Source of the DNA: Candidatus Forterrea multitransposorum CG_2015-17_Forterrea_25_41
GTDB taxonomy: Archaea; Iainarchaeota; Iainarchaeia; Iainarchaeales; CSSED10-239
Assembly (NCBI GenBank): GCA_009392915.1
Contig: CP045477.1
Span: forward strand, 1 to 64,000
Length of the DNA: 64,000 bases
Reading direction: 5' to 3'
Made by a program: the position numbers and the translations under genes. The notes under the pieces were generated by a model. The model was given only the letters and a program-made list of their open reading frames with translations, had not been told where the DNA came from and did no database searches. Positions 2,211 to 55,328 of the stretch are shown piece by piece (within the stretch, counting starts at the first letter, position 1; each line of letters opens with the position of its first letter).

Positions 2211-5093
2211 TTAATCTAACCTCTCTGTTATTTCTTGCATGACCTCTTCTACAAAGAATTGCAATCCATTATATTTTAATATTTTAATAACTTCTTTATT
2301 TGTTTCTTTTTTAATAAGTTCTGCAAATTGCCCTGTTGCATTTCCTTCAATAACTATTATTTTTTTTGCAGATTTAAGTAAGTCTTTTGTTCCAGGATAA
2401 ATTGGATATAATTGTTCATAATGAAGATATTTTATTTTTTTATTATCTATTTTTTCAACAGCTTCTTTAATTGTTTCAAAAGTACTTCCCCATCCAATAA
2501 TAATTATTTCATTACCTTTTCCAATAATTGTTGGCTTTAAACTTTCAAAAGTTATATCTTCTATTCTTTTTAATCTTTTTTTAACCATTTTAATTCTTAA
2601 AGAAAAATCTTCTGTAATATGTCCTGTTTGGTCATGTTCGTCACTATCCACACAAACTAAACCTTTTCCAAAGCCAGGGATTGCTCTAGGGGAAATTCCA
2701 CTTTCTGTAAAAGCATATCTTTGATAATCTTTTTTACTTTCTATAATATATTTTTCTTTATCTTCTTTTATTTCTATTTTTTCAAAAGGATAAAGATTTT
2801 CCATAAAATATTGATCTGTTAATATAAAAACAGGAATTTGGTATTTTTGAGAATCAATAAAAGCTTTGTTTGTAATCTCTACAGCACTTTTTAAATTTTT
2901 AGGAGCATATACAATTCTTGCAAATTCTCCATGTCCAGCGTGCATAACTAAATTTAAATCTTCTTGAGCTGTTCTTGTTGGAAGTCCAGTTGCAGGTCCT
3001 GGTCTTTGAGCTACATGTATGACTAATGGAGTTTCTATCATTCCTGCAAGGCTTACACCTTCACACATAAGTGCAAATCCTCCACCAGATGTGTTTGTAA
3101 GTGATCTTGCACCTGCAAAAGATGCTCCTAAACACATGTTTATTGCTGAAATTTCATCTTCTGCTTGTTCTACAATAATATCAAAATTTTCTCTTAATTT
3201 TGCTAGATTTTGTAAAACACCTGTTGATGGTGACATTGGGTATGCTGATATAAAATCACACCCTCCAGCAATTGCTCCGTATGCTATTGCTTGAGCACCT
3301 GTAAATAAATTATTTAATTTTATTTGTTTATTTTTTTTAATTTTTGGTAAATTTTTAACTATTTTTAAAATTTCTTTTCCTTTTAAAATACCTTTTTCTG
3401 CTGCTTGAATATTTTTTAAAACAATTTCTTTTCCTTTTTTTGAAAAACTTTCTTTTAGTTGTTTTATAAAATATTTTTTATTAATATTTAGTATTCCTAA
3501 AAGAGTTCCTGTTGCAACAGTGTTTGCAAAAACTTTATTTCCTATTTTTTCTGCAATTTCTTTAAAGGAAACATCAATTGTTTTATTTTTAAGCCCTAAT
3601 TTTCTAACTTCTTCTTTATTTCCAATAATAATTGTATTTTCATCAATTCTTTCTTTTAAATGTTCTATAGTATTTTTATCTAAAGCAAGTAAAATATCTA
3701 TTTTTTTTAAATTTCCTCTTCTTTCTTTTTCTGTAAGTCTAATAGATATGGTGTTAACTCCTCCTCTAACTCTTGACATATATTCAGAGTTTGAAGAAAA
3801 GTAAAAACCTTCTTCTTTAAGTATTTTAAGTAAAACATTTTGAACAGATACAAGACCTTGGCCTGCTTCTCCAGAAAGTACAATTGATAATTCTTTTTCA
3901 TCTATTTTTTTATTTTTAATTTCTTTTTTAAAAAGTTCTTTTGTTTTTTCAGTAATTATCTTTGAAAATTCATTTAATTTTTTAAAGTTTTCTTTTTTAG
4001 GAATTCCTGTTGAAATTTCTCCTAAAATAACTTCTGCTTCAAAATTATTTGTAATATTTTCAAATTCTTTAAAGGCTTCCCCACCCCATTCTTTAGATCC
4101 AATAAATCCAATAATTTTTGTTTTTGGTTTTAATTTATTTAAAGTACTAACTGTTGTTGAAACAATAGGGTGAAGCCCACCTAAAAAAGTAGGAGATGCT
4201 ATAATTAAAGTTGACGCATCTACCATTTCAATTGCAAGTTGTCCTATCTCTGTAGTTGTAAGATTATATTCTTTAACTTTATTGCCTTGGTTAATAAGTT
4301 TAGAAGTTAAATATTCAACCATTTTTTTTGTACTTCCGTGCATAGAAGTATACCCAATAATTATTTTTGGTTTGGTTTCTTTTTTTGACCAATTATAGTA
4401 TTTATCAATTATCCAATCAACATCTTGGTATATTTTTCCATGACTTGGAGCTATTATTTTTGGATTATATTCTTTTATTTTTTCTAAGTTTTTAAGAATA
4501 TAATTTCTAAAAGGCATCATTATTTCTGCATAATATCTTTTAGCAGGTAATTCTATTTCTTTTGTATCTTTAACAAATAATTCGCTTGTTGCAAGATGTG
4601 CTCCAAAAAAATCACAAGAAAACAAAATTTTATCTTCTTTTAAAAAAGTAGACATAGTTTCTGGCCAATGAACCCAAGGAGTATAAATAAATTTTAAGGT
4701 TTTATCTCCTAAGCTAATTTCTTCTAAGTCTTTAATAACTTGTATTCTTTTTTCCTCAATTACCATTTCATCTAAAAGTATTTTTTTACAAAGAGGATTA
4801 CAAATTAATTTTGCTTTTGGAAATTTATTTAAAATTATAGGTATTGATCCAGAGTGATCTTGTTCTGCATGATTAGATATAATATAATCTATATTTTTAA
4901 TATTTAATTTTTCTAAGTTTAAAATAAGTTCTTCTGTTTTTGTAATGTCAACAGTGTCTATTAAAGCTGTTTTTTTAGATCCAATTATTAAGTATGAATT
5001 GTAGCTAGTTCCATCTGGAAGATAGATTAGTTCATCAAAAAGCTTTCTATCCCAATCAATGGCTCCAACTGAATATATGTTTTTCTTAATCAT
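2211..5093 (-). CDS. fusion protein: flavodiiron protein (metallo-beta-lactamase diiron + flavodoxin) joined to OFOR gamma and alpha modules
   Basis: aa 1-240 carry FDP diiron ligands HAEQDH, VHWPE, CDFFGAH, PSHG. aa ~243-390 are flavodoxin-like (GYTSMHGSTKKM). From aa ~401, SGEAGQG marks the OFOR gamma module. From aa ~595, TGAQAIAYGAIAGGCDFISAYPMSPST marks the alpha module. Confidence 0.8.
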   Translation of the reverse strand: MIKKNIYSVGAIDWDRKLFDELIYLPDGTSYNSYLIIGSKKTALIDTVDITKTEELILNLEKLNIKNIDYIISNHAEQDHSGSIPIILNKFPKAKLICNPLCKKILLDEMVIEEKRIQVIKDLEEISLGDKTLKFIYTPWVHWPETMSTFLKEDKILFSCDFFGAHLATSELFVKDTKEIELPAKRYYAEIMMPFRNYILKNLEKIKEYNPKIIAPSHGKIYQDVDWIIDKYYNWSKKETKPKIIIGYTSMHGSTKKMVEYLTSKLINQGNKVKEYNLTTTEIGQLAIEMVDASTLIIASPTFLGGLHPIVSTTVSTLNKLKPKTKIIGFIGSKEWGGEAFKEFENITNNFEAEVILGEISTGIPKKENFKKLNEFSKIITEKTKELFKKEIKNKKIDEKELSIVLSGEAGQGLVSVQNVLLKILKEEGFYFSSNSEYMSRVRGGVNTISIRLTEKERRGNLKKIDILLALDKNTIEHLKERIDENTIIIGNKEEVRKLGLKNKTIDVSFKEIAEKIGNKVFANTVATGTLLGILNINKKYFIKQLKESFSKKGKEIVLKNIQAAEKGILKGKEILKIVKNLPKIKKNKQIKLNNLFTGAQAIAYGAIAGGCDFISAYPMSPSTGVLQNLAKLRENFDIIVEQAEDEISAINMCLGASFAGARSLTNTSGGGFALMCEGVSLAGMIETPLVIHVAQRPGPATGLPTRTAQEDLNLVMHAGHGEFARIVYAPKNLKSAVEITNKAFIDSQKYQIPVFILTDQYFMENLYPFEKIEIKEDKEKYIIESKKDYQRYAFTESGISPRAIPGFGKGLVCVDSDEHDQTGHITEDFSLRIKMVKKRLKRIEDITFESLKPTIIGKGNEIIIIGWGSTFETIKEAVEKIDNKKIKYLHYEQLYPIYPGTKDLLKSAKKIIVIEGNATGQFAELIKKETNKEVIKILKYNGLQFFVEEVMQEITERLD

Positions 5094-5159: not shown

Positions 5160-5912
5160 CTATTCTTGGTCAACTCTTGGTGCTAAGAAATATCTAATAG
5201 CAGAAGAGCCGATTGTGTAATTAATTTCAAGTGGCATATCGTCTTTAAGTTTTAAAGTGATTATGCTTTTTGCATTCTTAATCATATTTTGTAAATAGTC
5301 TAAAGTATACATTGCTTTTGCTTTGCTTCCTGAAATTAAAAGATTATTATCATTTGCTTCAATCTCTTGTTTGAATTTCCCTTTACTACTTTGTGTTTCT
5401 AAATAAAATTTATTATTTTCAACTTTTAAAGTGATATGGGAGCTAAAAAGACTTGCATCTTTTAAACCTGCAAGTAATTGATCAGAAGAGATTTGAACTG
5501 TTACATCAAATTGTATTTTAGGAAGAGGTTGTTCTTGTTCTGATACATCTATTAAAGGGATATGGAAGCTTCTTTTTGATTTTCCAATAAGTTCTATTAA
5601 GATAAATGATTTATCATCTTTAATTTCTAAACTTAATTTATCGTCACTTGATGAGTGGTTTAAGATTTGTAAGAAATTATTTATATTTATTCCAAAAGCA
5701 ATATTTTTTTCATCATCTTTAATATCTACTAAAAATTCTTCAAATGAATCTTTTGGCATTACAAAATCAACTAAACTTATTTGTCCAGGATCTGTTGCTC
5801 TTAAAAACATTTTTTCACTATCGATTGTAAATAAACCTTCGTTTATTAATACTCCAATAGCATCCATACTTTTTTGGAATTCTTTTACATCTTTTATTAT
5901 TAATTTAATCAT
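5160..5912 (-). CDS. pcn: DNA polymerase sliding clamp PCNA
   Basis: 250 aa. The N-terminus MIKLIIKDVKEFQKSMDAIGVLINEG...LRATDPGQISLVDF...FEEF matches the archaeal PCNA pattern. Confidence 0.9.
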   Translation of the reverse strand: MIKLIIKDVKEFQKSMDAIGVLINEGLFTIDSEKMFLRATDPGQISLVDFVMPKDSFEEFLVDIKDDEKNIAFGININNFLQILNHSSSDDKLSLEIKDDKSFILIELIGKSKRSFHIPLIDVSEQEQPLPKIQFDVTVQISSDQLLAGLKDASLFSSHITLKVENNKFYLETQSSKGKFKQEIEANDNNLLISGSKAKAMYTLDYLQNMIKNAKSIITLKLKDDMPLEINYTIGSSAIRYFLAPRVDQE

Positions 5913-5976
5913 CTTTAAATCTCCCCCTTAGCTAATATATTATATAAGCGATAATATTAAAATACTAATCATTTGT

Positions 5977-23653: not shown

Positions 23654-23699
23654 TATTGTCTAACCTATTTTATTACTAGATAAAGGAGGTTAGACAATA
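23654..23699 (+). promoter_or_regulatory. 13-bp perfect stem-loop occluding the transposase SD and start codon
   Basis: TATTGTCTAACCT (23654-23666) pairs with AGGTTAGACAATA (23687-23699). The right arm covers part of GGAGG and the A of the ATG. Confidence 0.5.
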
Positions 23700-24661
23700 T
23701 GAATATTAAGAACGAAAAGATTAATAAAAGGAACTGGTCAAAGATAAATTATGGAAAAACAAGACAAATCTTGTTTTTACTAGATAAAAACATTATTTTT
23801 AGTGAAAATGAAAGACTAGTTTCCCAAAATAAAAACAAACCAGGAAGACAATTTATATATAGTGATAGAATAATAGAACTATTAATTGATCTTAAAAATT
23901 ATTTTAAATTTGATTATCGTAAACTACAGGCATTCTGCCTGTTGTTTAATAATGTTATAAAAATAAAAACACCTGACTTTACAACTATTTGTAGAAGAAT
24001 GCACAAATTAGAATTATTTCTAAAAAATATAAAAACAAAAAAAGAACCAACCTTTATAGCTATAGATGGTTCTGGACTTCAAACTACTAATCGAGGAGAA
24101 TGGCTTAGATTAATACACAAAAAAGGAAAAATAAACTTAAGAAATGGATTTGTAAAATTAGTGATTGCAACAGATGTTGCATCTGGAGAAATAACTGGAG
24201 TGTATATTTCAGATGATTCTGATTTTGAAAATAAAAGCTTATCAGATTTATTATACCAAACAATAAATAATCAAAACCAAGAAGTCAAAGGACTTCTTGG
24301 AGATGGGGCATACGATTCTTATGATAACTTTGATATGCTTGATGATATGGGAATAAAACCAATTATCAAAATCAGAAAGAATGCAATTACAACAGAACCT
24401 AATGACGATTATTTAAAAAGAAGAAGAAAACTTGGAAAAAAGAAAAAAATAAAAAGAATTGAAGTTGCAAAAAAGCAACTTAAAAATGTAGATGACTGGA
24501 AACAAAAAAATGAGTATAATAAAAGGTGGGTTGTTGAATACACGTTTAGTGTATTCAAAAGACTATTCGGACATAGTGTGTACTCTAAAAGAAAGAAATA
24601 TGTCAAAAATGAAGTAATTTCTAAAGTAAATTTGTATAATAAATTATTAAATATCAATTAA
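23699..24661 (+). CDS. DDE transposase, IS4/IS5 superfamily
   Basis: D (IAIDGSG), D (LLGDGAYDS) and an exact Y-x2-R-x3-E-x6-K signature (YNKRWVVEYTFSVFK). Confidence 0.85.
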   Translation: MNIKNEKINKRNWSKINYGKTRQILFLLDKNIIFSENERLVSQNKNKPGRQFIYSDRIIELLIDLKNYFKFDYRKLQAFCLLFNNVIKIKTPDFTTICRRMHKLELFLKNIKTKKEPTFIAIDGSGLQTTNRGEWLRLIHKKGKINLRNGFVKLVIATDVASGEITGVYISDDSDFENKSLSDLLYQTINNQNQEVKGLLGDGAYDSYDNFDMLDDMGIKPIIKIRKNAITTEPNDDYLKRRRKLGKKKKIKRIEVAKKQLKNVDDWKQKNEYNKRWVVEYTFSVFKRLFGHSVYSKRKKYVKNEVISKVNLYNKLLNIN

Positions 24662-24818: not shown

Positions 24819-26192
24819 ATGGCTATAGACAAAAGATTTTTTTTAGGGATAACTATTAGTAAAAAAAGAAAAGCAATTTCTCCTTTAATTGCCACTATTC
24901 TTTTAATAGTTGTTGCCGTTGCAATTATAGCTATTATTGTTTCCTGGGGAAAAGGATTTACCAATGATTCTTTAAGCAAAGCCTCTGGTCTTGAAATTTA
25001 CACTGAATCAGAAACTTCTTTTTACTTGCAAGTAAAAAATTCAATAAACGGAAGAACTGTTGTTCAATATAATCCTCCTTATAATTCTCCTCACACCTCT
25101 TTAACCATAACAGGTTATAGCCTACATGGTAACACGAATATTAATCCCATAGATCCACCAATTACAATAACTGCAAACCAAACTGCAGTTATTGATCATG
25201 GTATTTTATTTCCAGAATTAAATTTAGTTTTATATTTGGATAATGATCGAATGATTATTAAAACTGATCTTTTACAAACTATTAAATCTCCTCTTTCTTG
25301 TCCAGAAGGTTATGTTTCTGTTCCAGGAAACCACTTATATGGAACTATGAATGAAAGTGGGGGTTTTTGTGTTTCAAAATATGAGATGAAAATGGATAGA
25401 ACAGGAGATGGAATAGGAAATCTTGTAGCTGATTATCCTGATTGTAACACCGGTTCTTTAACATATAATACTTATAGTTATGAATTATGCCCTACACCAG
25501 GCACTTTAGTTTCTACTCCAGAAGGTTCTCCCATAGCAAGAATCACACAAACTGAAAGCATATCAGCCTGTGAAGCTATTGGTGGTCATTTAATAACAAA
25601 TAACGAATGGATGACCATTGTACGAAACATAGAACAAGTTCCATCTAATTGGTCAGGTGGAGCAGTTGGTGATGGCTACCTTCCAAGAGGGAATTCATCT
25701 TCTTCAGGAGCTATGGAAGGCTTTGATCAACTTTCAGGAACTACCAAAAGAACCTTGACCTTAACAAACGGAGAGGTAATTTGGGATTTAGCAGGAAATG
25801 TAAGACAATGGACCAGTGACACTATTCAAAGAAAGGACCAGCCTGATGGTTTTAATAATGTAGATGATAGTAATAATACTTCTGGTTTTAATTGGTTTGA
25901 TTATTTTAAGGGCGGTGGAGTAGATCAATATATTTATTCTGATAATTTAGGTAACACCACCTTAAAGTATAAAGATTTATTTTTATTAACTAGTAATACT
26001 TATAATGCAACAGATAATGGTGTTGGAAGGATTTATACTTATAGTGATTTTAGTGATACTAGTACAACTGAGTACGCGTTTTTGCGCGGTGGTCACTGGG
26101 GCAATGGCACTAATGCCGGGGTCTTGCACCTGGTCTTGAACAAGACTCCTGGGTCCCGGAGCATCCTCATCGGCCTGCGCTGTGTCAAGTAG
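24819..26192 (+). CDS. DGR target protein: archaeal pilin-type class III signal peptide, linker, FGE/C-type-lectin-fold domain with C-terminal variable region
   Basis: N-terminus KKRKAISPLIATILLIVVAVAIIAIIV (DUF1628-like). FGE-sulfatase-like motifs SKYEM, GGHLITNNEW, WDLAGNVRQW, RGGHW and IGLRCVK. The last ~39 codons are the VR matching the TR downstream. Confidence 0.9.
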   Translation: MAIDKRFFLGITISKKRKAISPLIATILLIVVAVAIIAIIVSWGKGFTNDSLSKASGLEIYTESETSFYLQVKNSINGRTVVQYNPPYNSPHTSLTITGYSLHGNTNINPIDPPITITANQTAVIDHGILFPELNLVLYLDNDRMIIKTDLLQTIKSPLSCPEGYVSVPGNHLYGTMNESGGFCVSKYEMKMDRTGDGIGNLVADYPDCNTGSLTYNTYSYELCPTPGTLVSTPEGSPIARITQTESISACEAIGGHLITNNEWMTIVRNIEQVPSNWSGGAVGDGYLPRGNSSSSGAMEGFDQLSGTTKRTLTLTNGEVIWDLAGNVRQWTSDTIQRKDQPDGFNNVDDSNNTSGFNWFDYFKGGGVDQYIYSDNLGNTTLKYKDLFLLTSNTYNATDNGVGRIYTYSDFSDTSTTEYAFLRGGHWGNGTNAGVLHLVLNKTPGSRSILIGLRCVK

Positions 26193-26195
26193 TTT
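26075..26195 (+). repeat. DGR variable repeat (VR)
   Basis: 121 bp aligns without gaps to 27300-27420. There are 13 mismatches, 12 of them at TR adenines. GC-rich compared with its surroundings. Confidence 0.9.
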
Positions 26196-26232
26196 TTAGA
26201 AAAAATATATTTCATCCCCAAACCATGTATTT

Positions 26233-26263
26233 AGACGGGTGAGACGGCAAGACGGCCAGACGG
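26233..26263 (+). repeat. four tandem AGACGG motifs in a GC-rich patch downstream of the VR
   Basis: AGACGGgtgAGACGGcaAGACGGccAGACGG with 9/8/8-bp spacing. No ORF covers it. Confidence 0.6.
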
Positions 26264-26362
26264 AAGAAGCCATGGCAACCTAAACGTTTCAAGATTGTTT
26301 TTGCAAAAAAATGAAAAAACGTATTTGTGAAGTTTTAAAAAAAAGAAATGAGTGTGATTTTT

Positions 26363-26396
26363 GCAAATTTTTTTGATTTTTTTCAAAAAAATTTGC
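26363..26396. other. perfect 13-bp inverted repeat (AT-rich hairpin)
   Basis: GCAAATTTTTTTG, an 8-nt loop, then CAAAAAAATTTGC, between the DGR target gene and the first Avd-like gene. Confidence 0.5.
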
Positions 26397-26498
26397 TAGC
26401 CGTTAAACCAAATGGTTTTTTAATGTAAAAATAATTTTTATAATAATTAAGTTTTAAAGAAAAAATACTTTATATCTTGGACAAACAATGTGATTTAA

Positions 26499-26885
26499 AT
26501 GAGTTTAGTTGGAAATGAAAAAGGAATTCTAAATTTTGGTGTTTACAAGGAGCTTTTCCCAATCGTTATTGAAACTTATAATTTTTTAGAAAATAATAAA
26601 TCTTTATTTAAAGTAGATTTTGTTTATACAGATACTGTTAAAAATTTAATAGATATTCTTTCTTTTCTTTCCAAAGGGTATAATAAATTTCATTCTAATG
26701 AAAAATCTTTACTTTACTCTTATTCAAGAGATTGTGTTTCTACAACCCAATCTAATCTTTTAATATTATCTGAACTTAATAAAGATCTCTCAAAAGAAAA
26801 AACCTTATATTTTTATAATCAATTTGAGGATAAAATAAAGTATTTTAATGGTTTAATAAAAAAGATTGAAGAAAATAAAAACTAG
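26499..26885 (+). CDS. divergent four-helix-bundle (Avd-like) protein
   Basis: 128 aa with predicted helical repeats that loosely parallel Avd (VYKELFPIVIETYNFL..., LLILSELNKDL..., YFNGLIKKIE). Positioned directly upstream of avd. Confidence 0.4.
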   Translation: MSLVGNEKGILNFGVYKELFPIVIETYNFLENNKSLFKVDFVYTDTVKNLIDILSFLSKGYNKFHSNEKSLLYSYSRDCVSTTQSNLLILSELNKDLSKEKTLYFYNQFEDKIKYFNGLIKKIEENKN

Positions 26886-26896
26886 GGTATATTATT

Positions 26897-27226
26897 ATGT
26901 TATTTGACTTAAAGTTATATAAAGAAACTTATAACTTTTTACTTTATATTTATCCTGAAATAAATAAATTCCCTAAATCAGATAAATATTCTTTAGGAGA
27001 GGATATTAAAAAAACAACTATTTCTTTAATGTCAAATATTGTTCTTTTTTCAAAGCATAATGAAAATACTTTAAAAGAAGCAGATAAAAACTTAGAATTA
27101 CTAAGAATATATATTAGGCTTTCTTTTGATTTAAAAATAATCTCTTTTAAAAAATATGAGGTTATTTCAAGGCAATTAAATGATATTGGTAATTTATTAG
27201 GTGGTCTTTTAAAACAAAAGATTTAA
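26897..27226 (+). CDS. avd: DGR accessory variability determinant (Avd; four-helix-bundle / 23S rRNA-IVS protein family)
   Basis: LYKETYNFLLYIYPEINKFPKSDKYSLGEDIKKTTISLMSNI matches the family pattern. 109 aa, located between the target gene and the TR. Confidence 0.8.
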   Translation: MLFDLKLYKETYNFLLYIYPEINKFPKSDKYSLGEDIKKTTISLMSNIVLFSKHNENTLKEADKNLELLRIYIRLSFDLKIISFKKYEVISRQLNDIGNLLGGLLKQKI

Positions 27227-27299
27227 ATATTTTTTCAACTAATAGTTATGTTGTTCTTTTAAATAAAAAGAATAGGGCTTTTACAGAAAAAAACAGGTG

Positions 27300-27420
27300 C
27301 GCGTTTTTGCGCGGTGGTAACTGGAACAATGGCACTAATGCCGGGGTCTTGAACCTGAACTTGAACAATACTCCTGGGAACCGGAACAACAACATCGGCC
27401 TGCGCTGTGTCAAGTAGTTT
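27300..27420 (+). repeat. DGR template repeat (TR)
   Basis: Non-coding copy of the VR, rich in AAC/AAT triplets in the VR frame (G N W N N G T N A G V L N L N L N N T P G N R N N N I G L R C V K). Lies 258 bp upstream of the RT gene. Confidence 0.9.
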
Positions 27421-27422
27421 CT

Positions 27423-27445
27423 CCTTATTATTTTTAATAATAAGG
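27423..27445 (+). other. perfect 10-bp stem-loop immediately 3' of the TR
   Basis: CCTTATTATT, loop TTT, then AATAATAAGG, followed by a T-run. Confidence 0.55.
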
Positions 27446-27678
27446 TTTTATCAGAGTTTGTATGTTTATTTTTTTATCTAAAAAAACATATAAAGCGAAT
27501 ATTTTAAAAAACTACATCTGTAAAATGTTTCCTGATTGCACATAATGTGTGCCATAAGAACTATTTTGTTTTTATGTTAAAAAATCAAATATAAAGATAA
27601 GTTATTACATTTAGTATTTTTATAGTCTGTAAAAAGAAATCTGTAATAACTCTTAACTTTAAATAAGGCTTTTTAAAA

Positions 27679-28695
27679 ATGAAATCATACAATAACCTTT
27701 GGCAAGAATTCACTTCTTTTAAAAATATTTTTAATGCCTATAAAAAAGCAAGAAAGTCCACACCAAACAAAAAGTATATCTTGCAATTTACCACAAATTT
27801 AGAAAAGGAGTTATTCTTATTACAAGATCAATTAATTTCAGAAAATTTTCAATTTTCTCCTTACAGAAGTTTTAAAGTTTATGAACCTAAAGAAAGAACA
27901 ATAAGTGCACCTATTTTCAGGGATGTTGTTGTTCAGCATGCCATAATAAACATTATTGAACCTATTTTTGATAAAACCTTTATAGATAACTCTTTTGCTT
28001 GTAGAAAAGGAAAAGGCACACATAAAGGGCTTTTTGAAATTAAAAAAGTAATTCAAACCCCAAATCATCCAAAATACTATTTAAAACAAGATGTAAAGAA
28101 ATACTTTCCTTCAGTTCATAAACCTACCTTAAAAGAAATAATTTTTAAAAGAATTAAGGATGCAAGATTACTTTCTCTAATATATAAAATAATTGATAGT
28201 TATTCTTTTGATTTAAATCAAATTCAAAAAGGTATCCCTATAGGTAATTTAACCTCTCAGTTGTTTGCAAATATTTATTTAAACCATTTAGATCAGTATG
28301 TTAAGCATTCTTTAAAAATTAAACATTATTATAGATATGTAGATGATTTTTTAATATTTTCAAACAATAAAAGAAAATTACATGTTTTTAGAAGAAAAAT
28401 AAAATTATTTTTAAGTAAAGAACTATTATTAGATGTTCCAAAAAATAAAACTTATATAAACTTAGTAAGTAAAGGAGTTGATTTTTTAGGTTATAAGGTA
28501 TTTCCTTCAAACATAAGATTAAGAAAATCAAATCTTAAAAGATTTCTTCTAAGACAAAATAAAAATAACTTTCTTCTAAAAAAAAATCAAATTTCTAAAC
28601 TTAACTATAATTTTTCTCTTTTTTCTTTTTTAGGTTATGCAAAGCATGCAAACTCTTATAATCTCTTAAGTACTTTAAATATTAATGAGTTATAG
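27679..28695 (+). CDS. DGR-type reverse transcriptase
   Basis: RT motifs SAPIFRDVVVQHAI, IPIGNLTSQLFANIYL (DGR-typical [I/L]GxxxSQ) and YVDDFLIF. 338 aa, adjacent to the TR. Confidence 0.9.
   Translation: MKSYNNLWQEFTSFKNIFNAYKKARKSTPNKKYILQFTTNLEKELFLLQDQLISENFQFSPYRSFKVYEPKERTISAPIFRDVVVQHAIINIIEPIFDKTFIDNSFACRKGKGTHKGLFEIKKVIQTPNHPKYYLKQDVKKYFPSVHKPTLKEIIFKRIKDARLLSLIYKIIDSYSFDLNQIQKGIPIGNLTSQLFANIYLNHLDQYVKHSLKIKHYYRYVDDFLIFSNNKRKLHVFRRKIKLFLSKELLLDVPKNKTYINLVSKGVDFLGYKVFPSNIRLRKSNLKRFLLRQNKNNFLLKKNQISKLNYNFSLFSFLGYAKHANSYNLLSTLNINEL
28589..28687 (+). repeat. 99-bp direct repeat, copy 1 (3' end of the RT gene)
   Basis: Identical base for base to 30138-30236. Confidence 0.9.
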
Positions 28696-28838: not shown

Positions 28839-30104
28839 ATGGATAAAGCTTTTTTAAGAAACGTTGTTTCTGACCAGTATGAAGATTTAAAAGATGTTTC
28901 AAAAACAATACAAAGATATGATTCAAAAGAAATAGCGCGCTTTGTAAATAATCCTGCTATATCTATAATTTCAGGAGTAAGGCGTTGTGGTAAGTCCACT
29001 TTTTTAGAGCAGATAATAAATTTATATTATAAAAATAACTTTTATTATTTTGATTTTTCTGATGAAAGAATTGCAAAATTTGAAACTGCTGACTTTCAAA
29101 CATTATATGAGGTGTTTTTAGAAAAATTTGGAAAAAGACAGGCTTTTTTCTTTGATGAAATACAAGGAGTTCCAGAATGGAATAAATTTGTTAATAGAAT
29201 GAAAAAGATTGGGCATAAATGTTTTGTAACCGGTTCAAATTCAAATTTGTTAAGTCAAGAAATATCTACTTATCTAACAGGAAGACATATTGATAAAATC
29301 TTATTCCCTTTTTCCTTTAAAGAATATTTAACGTATAAAAATATTAATGTAGATTTAGATTCTACAAAATCAAGAACCTTAATTATTAAAGAGTTTAAAA
29401 ATTACTTTAAAATAGGTGGTTTTCCAGAGGTTGTTTTAACAAACGATACTTCAATTTTATTAAATATTTATTCTGACATAATTTCTAAAGATATAATTGA
29501 AAGATTTAGGATTAATGATGTTTCTTTATTTAAAGAATTTTGTAATTATGTAATTTCTTTATCTACGAATGAATTTACTTTTAAATCATTAAAAGATAAT
29601 TTTAATATTCAGAATATTACTACTGTTTCAAACTATCTTGATTATCTTAAATTAACTTACCTTGTTTATGAAGTTAAAAGATTTTCTTCTTCATTACAAA
29701 AATTAAATAAATATCCAAAAAAATATTATTGTATAGATAATGGTTTATTAAATAAAGTGGGTTTTGGATATTCAATAGAGGAAACTAGATTTTTAGAAAA
29801 TCAAGTTTTTATTGAACTTTGGAGAAATAATCCGCAATCTGAAATTTATTATTATAGAGATAAGGATAATAAAGAATGTGATTTTTTATTGTTAAATGAT
29901 AGAAAAGTAGTTAAGGCTATTCAAGTGTGTTTTGCTTTTAAAAAGATAGATACTAGAAAAAGAGAAATAGAAGGTTTACTATCTGCTTTAAAAGAGTTTA
30001 ATCTAAATTATGGCGAAATTATTACTTTTGAGCATAAAGAAAAATTAAAGATAGATGGAAAAGTAATAGAGATGATTCCTGTATATGAGTGGTTATTAAA
30101 ATAA
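28839..30104 (+). CDS. AAA-family ATPase (AAA_14 + DUF4143 type)
   Basis: Walker A SGVRRCGKST, Walker B FFFDEIQ; 421 aa. Sits between the two 99-bp repeat copies. Confidence 0.75.
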   Translation: MDKAFLRNVVSDQYEDLKDVSKTIQRYDSKEIARFVNNPAISIISGVRRCGKSTFLEQIINLYYKNNFYYFDFSDERIAKFETADFQTLYEVFLEKFGKRQAFFFDEIQGVPEWNKFVNRMKKIGHKCFVTGSNSNLLSQEISTYLTGRHIDKILFPFSFKEYLTYKNINVDLDSTKSRTLIIKEFKNYFKIGGFPEVVLTNDTSILLNIYSDIISKDIIERFRINDVSLFKEFCNYVISLSTNEFTFKSLKDNFNIQNITTVSNYLDYLKLTYLVYEVKRFSSSLQKLNKYPKKYYCIDNGLLNKVGFGYSIEETRFLENQVFIELWRNNPQSEIYYYRDKDNKECDFLLLNDRKVVKAIQVCFAFKKIDTRKREIEGLLSALKEFNLNYGEIITFEHKEKLKIDGKVIEMIPVYEWLLK

Positions 30105-30137
30105 TTTTTTTTAATTTTAAAAAAGGCTTTACCTTTA

Positions 30138-30236
30138 AAATTTCTAAACTTAACTATAATTTTTCTCTTTTTTCTTTTTTAGGTTATGCAAAGCATGCAA
30201 ACTCTTATAATCTCTTAAGTACTTTAAATATTAATG
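30138..30236 (+). repeat. 99-bp direct repeat, copy 2 (orphan duplicate of the RT 3' end)
   Basis: Identical to 28589-28687. It is no longer attached to an RT ORF. Confidence 0.9.
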
Positions 30237-30336
30237 GTTTTATAGTGTAGATTCTCTTTGCATTAAAAATATTGTTTTTGAAAAAAACAAAGCTTTAAAT
30301 TTTGTTTATTTATATAATATATTAGGTGAAAGCAAT

Positions 30337-30549
30337 ATGAAATATAGAGTTTTAATAGAACAAGACGAAGATGGTATCTTTGTTGCTGAATGCCCTAGTC
30401 TTCCAGGTGCAATTTCTCAAGGAAAAACAAGAGAAGAAGCAATAATAAATATTAAAGAAGCCATAAAAGGTTATCTTGAAAGTTTAAAGATAGCTAATGA
30501 ACCAATTCCTTCTCCAATATCTGAAGAAATAATTGATATTTATGGATAA
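30337..30549 (+). CDS. hicB: HicB-family antitoxin (UPF0150)
   Basis: YRVLIEQDEDGIFVAECPSLPGAISQGKTREEAIINIKEAI matches the HicB/UPF0150 pattern. Confidence 0.8.
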   Translation: MKYRVLIEQDEDGIFVAECPSLPGAISQGKTREEAIINIKEAIKGYLESLKIANEPIPSPISEEIIDIYG

Positions 30550-30766
30550 ACTGCCTATTATATCTGGTCAAGATTTAATCAAATTACTTCTAAAATTAGA
30601 TTATCAAGTTCATCATCAAACTGGATCACATATTATCTTAAGACAAAATAAAGAACCTTTTAGAAGATTAACAATTCCAAACCATAAAGAAATTTCAATA
30701 GGGACTTTAAGAGCAATTATAAGGCAAGTTGGAATAACAAGAGAAGAATTTGTTAAATTATTCTAA
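30542..30766 (+). CDS. hicA: HicA-family mRNA interferase toxin
   Basis: SGQDLIKLLLKLDY...QTGSHIILRQ...LTIPNHKEISIGTLRAIIRQ. The ATG overlaps the hicB stop (ATGGATAA). Confidence 0.85.
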   Translation: MDKLPIISGQDLIKLLLKLDYQVHHQTGSHIILRQNKEPFRRLTIPNHKEISIGTLRAIIRQVGITREEFVKLF

Positions 30767-37617: not shown

Positions 37618-37699
37618 GCAGAGGTGGCGGAGTGGTCAAACGCGCCAGCCTTGAGAGCTGGAGCCTTGCGCTACACGAGTTCGAATCTCGTCCTCTGCG
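37618..37699 (+). tRNA. tRNA-Ser (anticodon UGA)
   Basis: Acceptor GCAGAGG/CCTCTGC. Anticodon stem CCAGC/GCTGG with loop CTTGAGA. Long variable arm and T-loop TTCGAAT. Confidence 0.9.
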
Positions 37700-37730
37700 C
37701 TTTATCTTTTAAAATATAGGAATTTTTATT

Positions 37731-38063
37731 ATGATTAAAGAAAACATTTCTTTTCAAGATTTTTTAAAACTTGATATAAGAATTGGAACAATTGTTGAGG
37801 CTGAAGCTGTTGAGGGTTCTGATAAATTAATAAAATTAATAATTGATTTTAAAGATTTTAAAAGACAGATTTTAGCTGGTATTAAAACAAAATATCAACC
37901 AACTGATTTATTAAACAAACAAATTCCTGTTATTGTAAATTTAGAACCTAGAAAAATGATGGGTTTTGAAAGTCAAGGAATGATCTTAGCTGTTGGAGAT
38001 AAAACTTTAGATGCTTTACTTTTACCATCTGAGCCTGTATCGGAAGGCTCGATTGTACACTAA
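37731..38063 (+). CDS. tRNA-binding domain protein (Trbp111/CsaA/EMAP-like)
   Basis: FLKLDIRIGTIVEAEAVEGSDKLIKLIIDF...GFESQGMILA matches the OB-fold tRNA-binding domain pattern. Confidence 0.8.
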   Translation: MIKENISFQDFLKLDIRIGTIVEAEAVEGSDKLIKLIIDFKDFKRQILAGIKTKYQPTDLLNKQIPVIVNLEPRKMMGFESQGMILAVGDKTLDALLLPSEPVSEGSIVH

Positions 38064-38084
38064 TTTTTTTTTAAAACTAAAAAT

Positions 38085-38166
38085 GCAGAGGTGGCGGAGT
38101 GGTCAAACGCGCAAGCCTGGAAAGCTTGAGCCTCGTGCTACGCGAGTTCGAATCTCGTCCTCTGCG
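38085..38166 (+). tRNA. tRNA-Ser (anticodon GGA)
   Basis: Acceptor, D and T arms are the same as in the first tRNA-Ser. Anticodon stem CAAGC/GCTTG with loop CTGGAAA. Confidence 0.9.
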
Positions 38167-38197
38167 CTTTTTTCTTTTTTAATTTAATATTTATTTT

Positions 38198-38286
38198 GCA
38201 GAGATGGCGGAGTGGTCAAACGCACAAGTTTCGAAAACTTGATTAAGGTTTTTTCCTTTACATGAGTTCAAATCTCATTCTCTGCG
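38198..38286 (+). tRNA. tRNA-Ser (anticodon CGA)
   Basis: Acceptor GCAGAGA/TCTCTGC. Anticodon stem CAAGT/ACTTG with loop TTCGAAA. Long variable arm AAGG-TTTTTT-CCTT and T-loop TTCAAAT. Confidence 0.85.
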
Positions 38287-38462
38287 TAGCTGGTTTCGGT
38301 CAGCTAGCACCCAATGATTTTGCGTTTGTTAACGCTTATTTAAACTTTCTTTTTAAAAGAAGTGATTTTCCCCCAAAACTTTTTTTCTTTAAAAATTGTG
38401 TTTTAAAAATTTTTAATCTATTTTATATCTATTTAAAATACTTTTGCCTCTCTTTAATATTT

Positions 38463-55210: not shown

Positions 55211-55328
55211 TGTTAGCGGCCATAGGGATGGAGAAACACCTGGACCCTTTCCGAACCCAGAAGTTAAGTCTATTGCCGTTTTAGTTCGCTGTTAGTTCAT
55301 GCTAGTAGCGTCTTTAAAGCTGCTAACA
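55211..55328 (+). rRNA. rrf: 5S ribosomal RNA (orphan, not linked to 16S/23S)
   Basis: GCGGCCATAGG...CCGAACCCAGAAGTTAAG core. Terminal helix TGTTAGCGGC/GCTGCTAACA. Confidence 0.85.

Follow-up and report, generated by a model that had tools for sequence, protein, structure and literature searches.

Does the chromosome of a DPANN archaeon carry a functional diversity-generating retroelement (DGR) and, if so, which protein would it diversify? This question is raised by a 64,000-nucleotide (nt) stretch of Candidatus Forterrea multitransposorum (contig CP045477.1, positions 1 to 64,000; "the window"), in which an original prediction made from the sequence alone had placed a complete DGR at 24819-28695. 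It consists of a target gene ending in a variable repeat (VR), two accessory genes, a template repeat (TR), and a reverse transcriptase (RT) gene. All these parts were recovered on the + strand, each where it had been predicted, and the guess that the host is DPANN-like was borne out since its nearest named relatives are metagenome-assembled genomes (MAGs) of Candidatus (I)ainarchaeum, phylum Iainarchaeota. As detailed below, the locus is a DGR by every criterion that can be tested on sequence, with recent VR-restricted turnover in natural populations. It is thus very probably a chromosomal, functional DGR of a DPANN (Iainarchaeota-like) archaeon, which diversifies a pilin-anchored protein.

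Template adenines and variation in the VR

The VR (26075-26195, + strand) covers the last 39 codons of the target gene (residues 419 to 457) and its stop codon, and the TR is found downstream (27300-27420, + strand). The two repeats align without gaps over 121 nt, and a repeat search extends the pair to 124 nt with 89% identity. As predicted, they differ almost only at TR adenines, which account for 12 of the 13 mismatches, corresponding to 12 of 30 adenine sites versus 1 of 91 other sites (Fisher p = 8e-8). This agrees with the threshold of Paul 2015 (at least 10 adenine mismatches and at most 2 non-adenine mismatches per 100 bp). The sole exception is a T>G change at TR position 70 (27369), which would fall within the non-adenine error rates of 0.4 to 1.7% per site measured for bRT, the RT of the Bordetella phage DGR (PMC7826257). 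Adenine-specific differences are also seen in the complete relatives of the clade, where 16/16, 15/15, and 13/14 VR/TR mismatches lie at adenines.

The TR is noncoding, as had been proposed, since none of the + strand open reading frames (ORFs) of at least 40 residues covers it. Translated in the VR frame, it reads AFLRGGNWNNGTNAGVLNLNLNNTPGNRNNNIGLRCVK* and contains 12 AAY (Asn) codons. AAY is the classic codon design of DGRs, in which adenine substitutions reach 15 amino acids and never a stop, and the 12 codons give by simple arithmetic a theoretical repertoire of 15^12 (~1.3e14) variants. Both repeats are strongly GC-rich (50 to 59%) in a window with 24.6% GC, where the only other tracts of at least 45% GC are a marginal one in the target gene (46%, at 25641) and the tRNA-Ser region at 37.6-38.1 kb. 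There are no further VR-like copies and no second RT in the 64-kb window.

A DGR that is at work should leave its mark in the population, which we surveyed using 15 further contigs (given L numbers hereafter) from 14 samples. An RT identical to ours is encoded in many samples, and these contigs, found through exact-protein look-ups, are consensus assemblies. A scan of the metagenome_contigs collection for the exact pattern of the VR 3' end and its flank gave no match although JGI-derived loci do have the pattern, that collection evidently being without these samples. The TR is invariant, being identical in the 12 assemblies that contain it, window included. In contrast, the VR is where variability is confined: 14 of the 15 contigs, compared over 1.3 to 5.6 kb, differ from the window only inside the VR, at 0, 1, or 18 positions, and the 1,256 nt of target gene that precede the VR are free of mismatches in 14/14 contigs. 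In the most extreme comparison (window versus L003), we found 18 differences in 121 nt and none in the other ~5.5 kb. At the protein level, differences among cluster members all map to residues 426 to 451.

The VR exists as three alleles in the population. Apart from the above T>G, which is present in alleles 1 and 2, all the changes are at adenines of the TR (TR1) or, for allele 3, at adenines of TR2, the template of a second cassette that is described below and that does not account for the T>G. Alleles 1 and 3 have four identical substitutions in common versus 3.0 expected by chance, which fits independent rewriting. Alleles also coexist, as in sample 3300025844, which contains both allele 3 (L103) and a contig that begins inside the VR with allele-1/2-type sequence (L006). 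Because up to 18 VR differences are found in genomes otherwise identical over 5.5 kb, and because alleles coexist, the VR changes are recent relative to background mutation. Several assemblies, including contigs of relatives, break at or beside the VR.

A second cassette and the origin of the VR alleles

The same genome contains a second complete cassette with the same architecture (contigs L107 and L108). That both cassettes belong to one genome is indicated by a common NCBI locus-tag prefix (GW776) and the same longest contig (839,632 bp). Cassette 2 proteins are 75 to 79% identical to those of cassette 1, the TRs are ~92% identical, and all 20 mismatches between VR2 and TR2 are at adenines. 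TR2 differs from TR1 at 10 of 121 positions: 1, 2, 4, 7, 8, 34 (C>A), 43 (C>A), 56 (C>T), 112, and 113.

This comparison sheds light on VR1 allele 3, which 10 independent assemblies contain. The only sites other than adenines at which it departs from TR1 are positions 34, 43, and 56 (G, G, and T), which are precisely the three interior sites where TR1 and TR2 differ. The chance of such a coincidence is ~1.4e-5. When allele 3 is compared to TR2 instead, 18/18 interior differences are at adenines, while its edges are VR1-type. The bases at 34/43/56, the TR2 adenine pattern, and the VR1 edges therefore show that sequence of the cassette 2 lineage has been written into VR1. Whichever the route, the retained edges place the boundaries of the transfer between positions 9 and 20 on the 5' side and between 96 and 111 on the 3' side, the latter therefore being in the GC-rich TCGGCCTGCGCTGTGT segment. 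Two simpler accounts of allele 3 were discarded. We had considered its three non-adenine changes, all synonymous, as neutral drift or RT errors, a view abandoned once they were seen to match TR2 exactly. We also rejected a chimera of VR1 and VR2 created during assembly, since allele 3 is identical in 10 assemblies from different pipelines and has novel bases at six positions.

Cassette 2 sequence may have reached VR1 by either of two routes, trans-homing of TR2-derived complementary DNA (cDNA) or gene conversion from VR2 to VR1. We see an even chance that the cassettes cross-write each other's targets, with allele 3 having been templated by TR2 rather than by its own TR1. If true, this would be natural evidence of trans-homing between full cassettes, with the transferred tract mapped. 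A broader alternative, which we consider unlikely, is that the VR alleles arose mainly by DNA-level gene conversion among paralogous VRs, the DGR having only set the original adenine pattern. The two cassettes are similar enough in both proteins and TRs to lend it some credit, allele 3 has sister-cassette bases at 34, 43, and 56, and it shares with VR2 10 to 11 identical adenine-site substitutions versus 4.8 expected (P = 0.0005-0.004), although selection common to paralogous binding sites could also be the source of this sharing. However, allele 3 departs from each of the two VR2 alleles known at position 34 and at 11 adenine sites, and at six positions it has a base present neither in VR1 alleles 1/2 nor in VR2, so it is not a simple mosaic. 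Moreover, there are no cassette 2 bases in alleles 1 and 2, the location of all the differences on template adenines is unexplained by recombination alone, and the RT, Avd, and spacer RNA are intact and conserved.

Multiple targets are also seen within a single cassette. In L095, whose RT is 64% identical to that in the window, two VRs accompany a single TR, one upstream and the other in a second target gene 3' of an ATPase gene (9-96, 1094-1214, and 5373-5482), and this clade can therefore serve two targets from one cassette.

It could be argued that the cassette is a relic, with VR/TR differences recording ancient activity on a target that is no longer diversified. Although few alleles were seen and some relatives look degraded (L007 is without the Avd segment, and L102 has a stop codon in its RT gene), we find this very improbable since genomes otherwise identical over 5.5 kb differ at up to 18 VR positions, alleles coexist in one sample, the ORFs in the window are all intact, and the TR and spacer are strongly conserved.

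Several observations nevertheless weigh against a functional DGR rewriting its target as described for known systems. First, with only three consensus alleles found in 16 assemblies of the locus, turnover may be slow. Second, alleles 1 and 2 differ only at VR position 38 (26112 in the window), a TR-adenine site with A or T, and the two VR2 alleles (L107 and L108) likewise differ only at one TR-adenine site, with G or C (position 4210). Such single-site pairs are not predicted by whole-tract rewriting and hint instead at short-patch conversion or point mutation. Third, the last 28 nt of the VR and TR are the same, with an abrupt divergence beyond them, so a canonical pair of initiation of mutagenic homing sites (IMH/IMH*) is not identifiable, and no GC-rich hairpin directly follows the VR. 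Fourth, L102 (ERZ27293361) has five clustered substitutions at the 5' end of the RT gene (27682-27714 in the window), which do not match cassette 2 and introduce a stop at codon 2 (AAA>TAA). These changes could be genuine, making L102 an RT-null variant, or result from an error in assembly. Finally, support for DGR activity comes from the sequence level.

Reverse transcriptase, accessory proteins, and template RNA

The RT gene (27679-28695, + strand) encodes a 338-residue protein that was predicted to belong to the DGR clade, and its scores point the same way. It matches the solved Bordetella phage bRT (PDB 8ub7) over residues 2 to 331 with E = 3.7e-54 and 187.5 bits, while group II intron RTs are matched with E = 1.8e-22 or weaker and retron-type and Drt RTs are weaker yet, all at or below 83 bits. 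The two DGR-type motifs on which the prediction was partly based, IGNLTSQ (residues 188 to 194) and YVDD (residues 220 to 223), are present and invariant in 19 relatives. An [I/V/L]GxxxSQ motif marks DGR RTs as opposed to QGxxxSP in group II and retroviral RTs, and bRT residues R74 and I181 have been shown to promote adenine mutagenesis (PMC7826257). These two residues align with R73 and I188 in our RT. Relatives of the RT with 45 to 78% identity are found in Iainarchaeota, Aenigmarchaeota, Pacearchaeota, and Nanoarchaeota MAGs. The idea of an RT from a different kind of retroelement (group II intron, retron, or defense RT), next to an unrelated duplication, can be virtually dismissed because, even though a group II intron RT model is the top NCBIfam match (148.8 bits versus a cutoff of 300, with the group II, retron, and Drt models all scoring far under their cutoffs), bRT is by far the best solved relative, the IGxxxSQ motif is DGR-specific, there is no maturase/X or endonuclease domain, Rfam gives no intron RNA, an Avd gene adjoins, and the repeat mismatches are adenine-specific.

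The claim that there are two genes for four-helix-bundle accessory proteins also stood, although the evidence differs for each. The second gene (26897-27226, + strand) encodes a 109-residue protein with an isoelectric point (pI) of 9.35, which is identified as Avd (accessory variability determinant) by the curated model NF033474 (DivGenRetAVD, 92.4 bits for a cutoff of 80) and by Pfam PF22296 (bAvd, E = 2.2e-21). The first gene (26499-26885, + strand) encodes a 128-residue protein with a pI of 7.7, which was recognized only via modeling and profile searches since the ORF itself has no match in family-model searches, including the bAvd and 23S_rRNA_IVP models. Its structural model, built with database homologs, displays four long helices with a predicted local distance difference test score (pLDDT) of 84 and a predicted template modeling score (pTM) of 0.78. 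An exhaustive profile search of 1.84 billion proteins found a small family of 51 representatives. Among 40 members, 24 match PF05635 (best E = 1.5e-39) and two match bAvd. The family profile can be aligned end to end with that of the local Avd (78% probability, E = 1.8e-5) and matches 2gsc (E = 4.9e-5). Direct comparisons of the two proteins were uninformative (BLASTP E = 0.008 over 42 residues, and 0.07% probability for a five-sequence profile). On the strength of modeling and family profiles, the 128-residue ORF encodes a four-helix bundle that is probably a divergent member of the Avd/PF05635 superfamily.

This tandem is a conserved feature. It is kept wherever the region is present in the relatives L009 to L012, L096, and L097 (RTs 54 to 76% identical), and L095 (64%, by BLASTP), and the order in the clade is target, Avd-like ORF (123 to 136 residues), bAvd (109 to 113 residues), TR, a spacer of ~200 to 280 nt, and RT. 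For the Avd-like protein, the window and L009 have a near-neutral pI (7.7), compared to 9.0 to 9.2 for the basic orthologs from other lineages. Since two avd genes were present in only 1 of 372 DGRs in a published survey, the conserved tandem pair is a noteworthy variant, and it is a possibility that the two proteins might form a heteromeric accessory complex in this clade. A different arrangement is found in L007 (Ca. ainarchaeum MAG STF1_257, 5570-5955), where the target VR is fused directly to the spacer downstream of the TR, with neither Avd gene present. This reflects either a VR x TR recombination with loss of the intervening segment or a repeat collapsed by the assembler (coverage is ~5x).

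Between the TR and the RT gene is a spacer (27421-27678, + strand) for which covariation and conservation show a structured noncoding RNA. Directly 3' of the TR is a hairpin (CCTT...AAGG, 27423-27445), and an alignment of nine spacers supports three helices, at 27457-27467/27484-27494, 27533-27537/27583-27587, and 27599-27609/27642-27652. Of the 27 pairs in these helices, 14 are maintained through changes on both sides. Cells of the alignment are paired in 92.4% of cases versus 41 to 52% when partners are slid by one to three columns, and 0/500 shuffles reach the observed values of pairing and covariation. The spacers of the window and L007 are 97.7% identical, versus 81 to 82% for the adjoining RT and target genes. 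A covariance model, for which the spacer is the sole match in the window, finds the held-out L096 (E = 2e-6), L097 (E = 3e-5), and L093, itself a partial sequence, the best value among these being 4e-12. More weakly (E = 0.002), it finds L014 (RT 45% identical), directly upstream of the RT gene. Distant DGR loci from metagenome_contigs (RT identity 35 to 47%) were too divergent for spacer alignment, with just L014 matching the RNA model, and no Rfam family matches the spacer. In Bordetella, binding by bRT-Avd depends on the Sp RNA, which lies downstream of the TR and whose residue A56 supplies the 2'-OH used for priming, while a structured trailing RNA of ~200 nt has been reviewed as a DGR feature. 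Our spacer RNA is analogous to Sp, and its covariation fits the requirement for Sp in bRT-Avd priming.

We infer cDNA synthesis, the priming site, the composition of the complex, the mechanism of integration, and the adhesin role discussed below only by analogy. If the locus functions like the Bordetella phage DGR, on which the following steps are modeled, a transcript with the accessory genes, TR, and structured spacer would be bound by the RT together with an Avd-type pentamer, which in this clade may include the second, Avd-like paralog. The RT would copy the TR into cDNA, faithfully except opposite adenines. This cDNA would take the place of the homologous VR, with which the target gene ends, so that as many as 12 AAY codons would be recoded, each to any of 15 amino acids and never to a stop, for ~1e14 variants.

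Two sequence elements downstream of the VR might play a role in the process. An array of four GACGG motifs (26234-26263, + strand, spacing of 9, 8, and 8 nt) is located 42 nt after the target stop codon and is preceded by a conserved A/T-rich block (ATGTATTTC..ATATTGTATTTT). It occurs only here in the window (0 expected in 100 shuffles), and it is kept in cassette 2 (L107, ~4280-4310) and L009, with lineage variants at this position in L011 (ATCGG x4) and in L096 and L097 (ATCTG x3). We consider it a candidate cis element, which might mark the target site or control the operon. Farther downstream, between the target and accessory genes, is a perfect 14-bp inverted repeat with a 6-nt loop (GCAAATTTTTTTGA / TCAAAAAAATTTGC, 26363-26396), the equivalent of which is visible in aligned cassette 2, L009, and L011. 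It is a candidate terminator, promoter/operator of the accessory operon, or cruciform.

The target protein, known systems, and the gene neighborhood

What would be diversified is a 457-residue protein (24819-26192, + strand) with a tripartite organization. Its N terminus, a short charged leader followed by a hydrophobic helix, is of the class III signal peptide type and scores above the cutoff for the archaeal type IV pilin/archaellin-type model TIGR02537 (residues ~17 to 47, nt 24867-24959, + strand). A beta-sandwich follows (residues ~70 to 152), and the C-terminal part belongs to the FGE-sulfatase family (PF03781, above cutoff). Consistent with this, a structural model (pLDDT 87.6) starts with a long helix at the N terminus, continues with a beta-sandwich, and finishes with an alpha/beta domain that has the VR at its end, and the best fold match is a solved DGR variable protein. 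The VR encodes the C terminus of a variation-tolerant C-type-lectin fold, and the variable codons are AAY in the TR. By analogy, the target is probably displayed on a pilus or on the cell surface as an adhesin for attachment to a host or particle. Its first 328 residues are also encoded, with 100% identity, on a 1,149-nt contig (P0123, NCBI NCN53274.1) labeled "Candidatus Wolfebacteria bacterium," which is probably mis-binned.

One of the closest known systems, the DGR of Bordetella phage BPP-1, resembles our locus in many respects. These include the RT clade, the [I/V/L]GxxxSQ motif and the equivalents of R74/I181, an Avd that is a basic four-helix bundle, a structured spacer RNA between the TR and the RT, VR/TR differences specific to adenines, and a VR at the C terminus of a C-type-lectin-fold protein (Mtd). 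It differs in being on a phage rather than an archaeal chromosome, in having one Avd gene instead of two tandem genes of the Avd superfamily, and in diversifying a tail fiber instead of a pilin-anchored protein. A GC hairpin directly after the VR is absent from our locus and an IMH/IMH* mismatch is not recognizable, while the GACGG x4 array and, farther on, the AT-rich inverted repeat are found instead.

The original prediction also stated that DGRs are known from DPANN, and published surveys do document their abundance in groundwater organisms of DPANN and of the candidate phyla radiation (CPR). Because of this, and because it is already in public MAGs and metagenomes, our locus belongs to a known kind. 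It shares with the DGRs of these organisms (Paul et al. 2015; the "CPR set" of Wu et al. 2018; archaeal clade 5 of Roux et al. 2021) the type of host and habitat, multiple DGRs per small genome, and a CLec-type C-terminal VR. According to the surveys, targets in the archaeal clade are usually without recognizable transmembrane or conserved domains. By comparison, the target family described here has a recognizable archaeal pilin N terminus, and the Avd-like/Avd pair is universal in its subclade, both of which may already have been described. Among individual variable proteins, Thermus aquaticus TaqVP (PDB 5vf4) is without the pilin-type N-terminal helix and the beta-sandwich present here. The concept of a DGR rewriting the ligand-binding tip of a pilus-associated protein is common to a bacterial type V pilus system. 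The pilus parts are not homologous, and the anchor here is archaeal type IV pilin-like with a class III signal. The features that make our locus a variant are thus the tandem Avd paralogs, the pilin-type anchor, the covariation-supported template RNA, and the inter-cassette transfer.

To our knowledge, no archaeal DGR has been reconstituted experimentally. With intact genes, a defined template RNA whose helices are supported by covariation, natural alleles that prove recent turnover, and a sister cassette as internal control, the locus is a compact and unusually well supported candidate for experiment. While the basic understanding of DGRs is unchanged, a plausible surface role, as a pilin-anchored lectin-fold adhesin, for a target family in which surveys have recognized no domains bears on the attachment of DPANN episymbionts to their hosts. 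If confirmed, the second Avd paralog and the inter-cassette transfer would extend the DGR mechanism in terms of accessory-complex composition, trans use of templates, and tract boundaries.

The DGR is flanked by archaeal housekeeping genes, which encode a Hel308-type helicase, an FKBP, a proteasome subunit, a KH/beta-CASP nuclease, and a CCA-adding enzyme. Synteny is the same in the related genome L009 (RT 76% identical), except that L009 is without the upstream IS5 transposase gene (23699-24661) and, downstream, the AAA_14/DUF4143 ATPase gene and HicAB (28839-30766). Judging from this comparison, these genes are lineage-specific insertions, not parts of the DGR. The transposase (NF033579, 195 bits) is encoded between a UPF0175 gene and the DGR target and is also absent in L007. 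The same insertion sequence is joined to other upstream contexts in L001, L098, and L103, and many contigs stop ~200 nt before the target gene. The IS5 element is therefore probably multicopy and breaks assemblies.

Immediately downstream, the 3' end of the RT gene is present as an exact 99-nt direct duplication (28589-28687 and 30138-30236), whose copies bracket a 1,450-nt insert with the ATPase gene (28839-30104). The first copy completes the RT ORF (...NINEL*) and the second is a remnant (...NINGFIV*). The insert, in which no integrase is present, is absent from L007 and L009 and looks like an insertion that regenerated the end of the RT gene. We rejected the ATPase as a DGR component since it is absent from L007, L009, and most relatives, and since the ATPase of L095 is just 26% identical and without the RT-end duplication. 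A HicB/HicA toxin-antitoxin pair (30337-30766), also absent from L007 and L009, follows the insert. In L012 (2506-5371) and L096 (5133-6113), DUF1016/YhcG-type (nuclease-like) genes are found directly downstream of the RT gene. With ATPase genes there in the window and in L095, the site 3' of the RT gene seems to be a preferred location of accessory or mobile genes. Elsewhere in the window, there are three tRNA-Ser genes (TGA, GGA, and CGA anticodons) within 670 nt (37618-38287) and a 5S rRNA gene (55212-55328).

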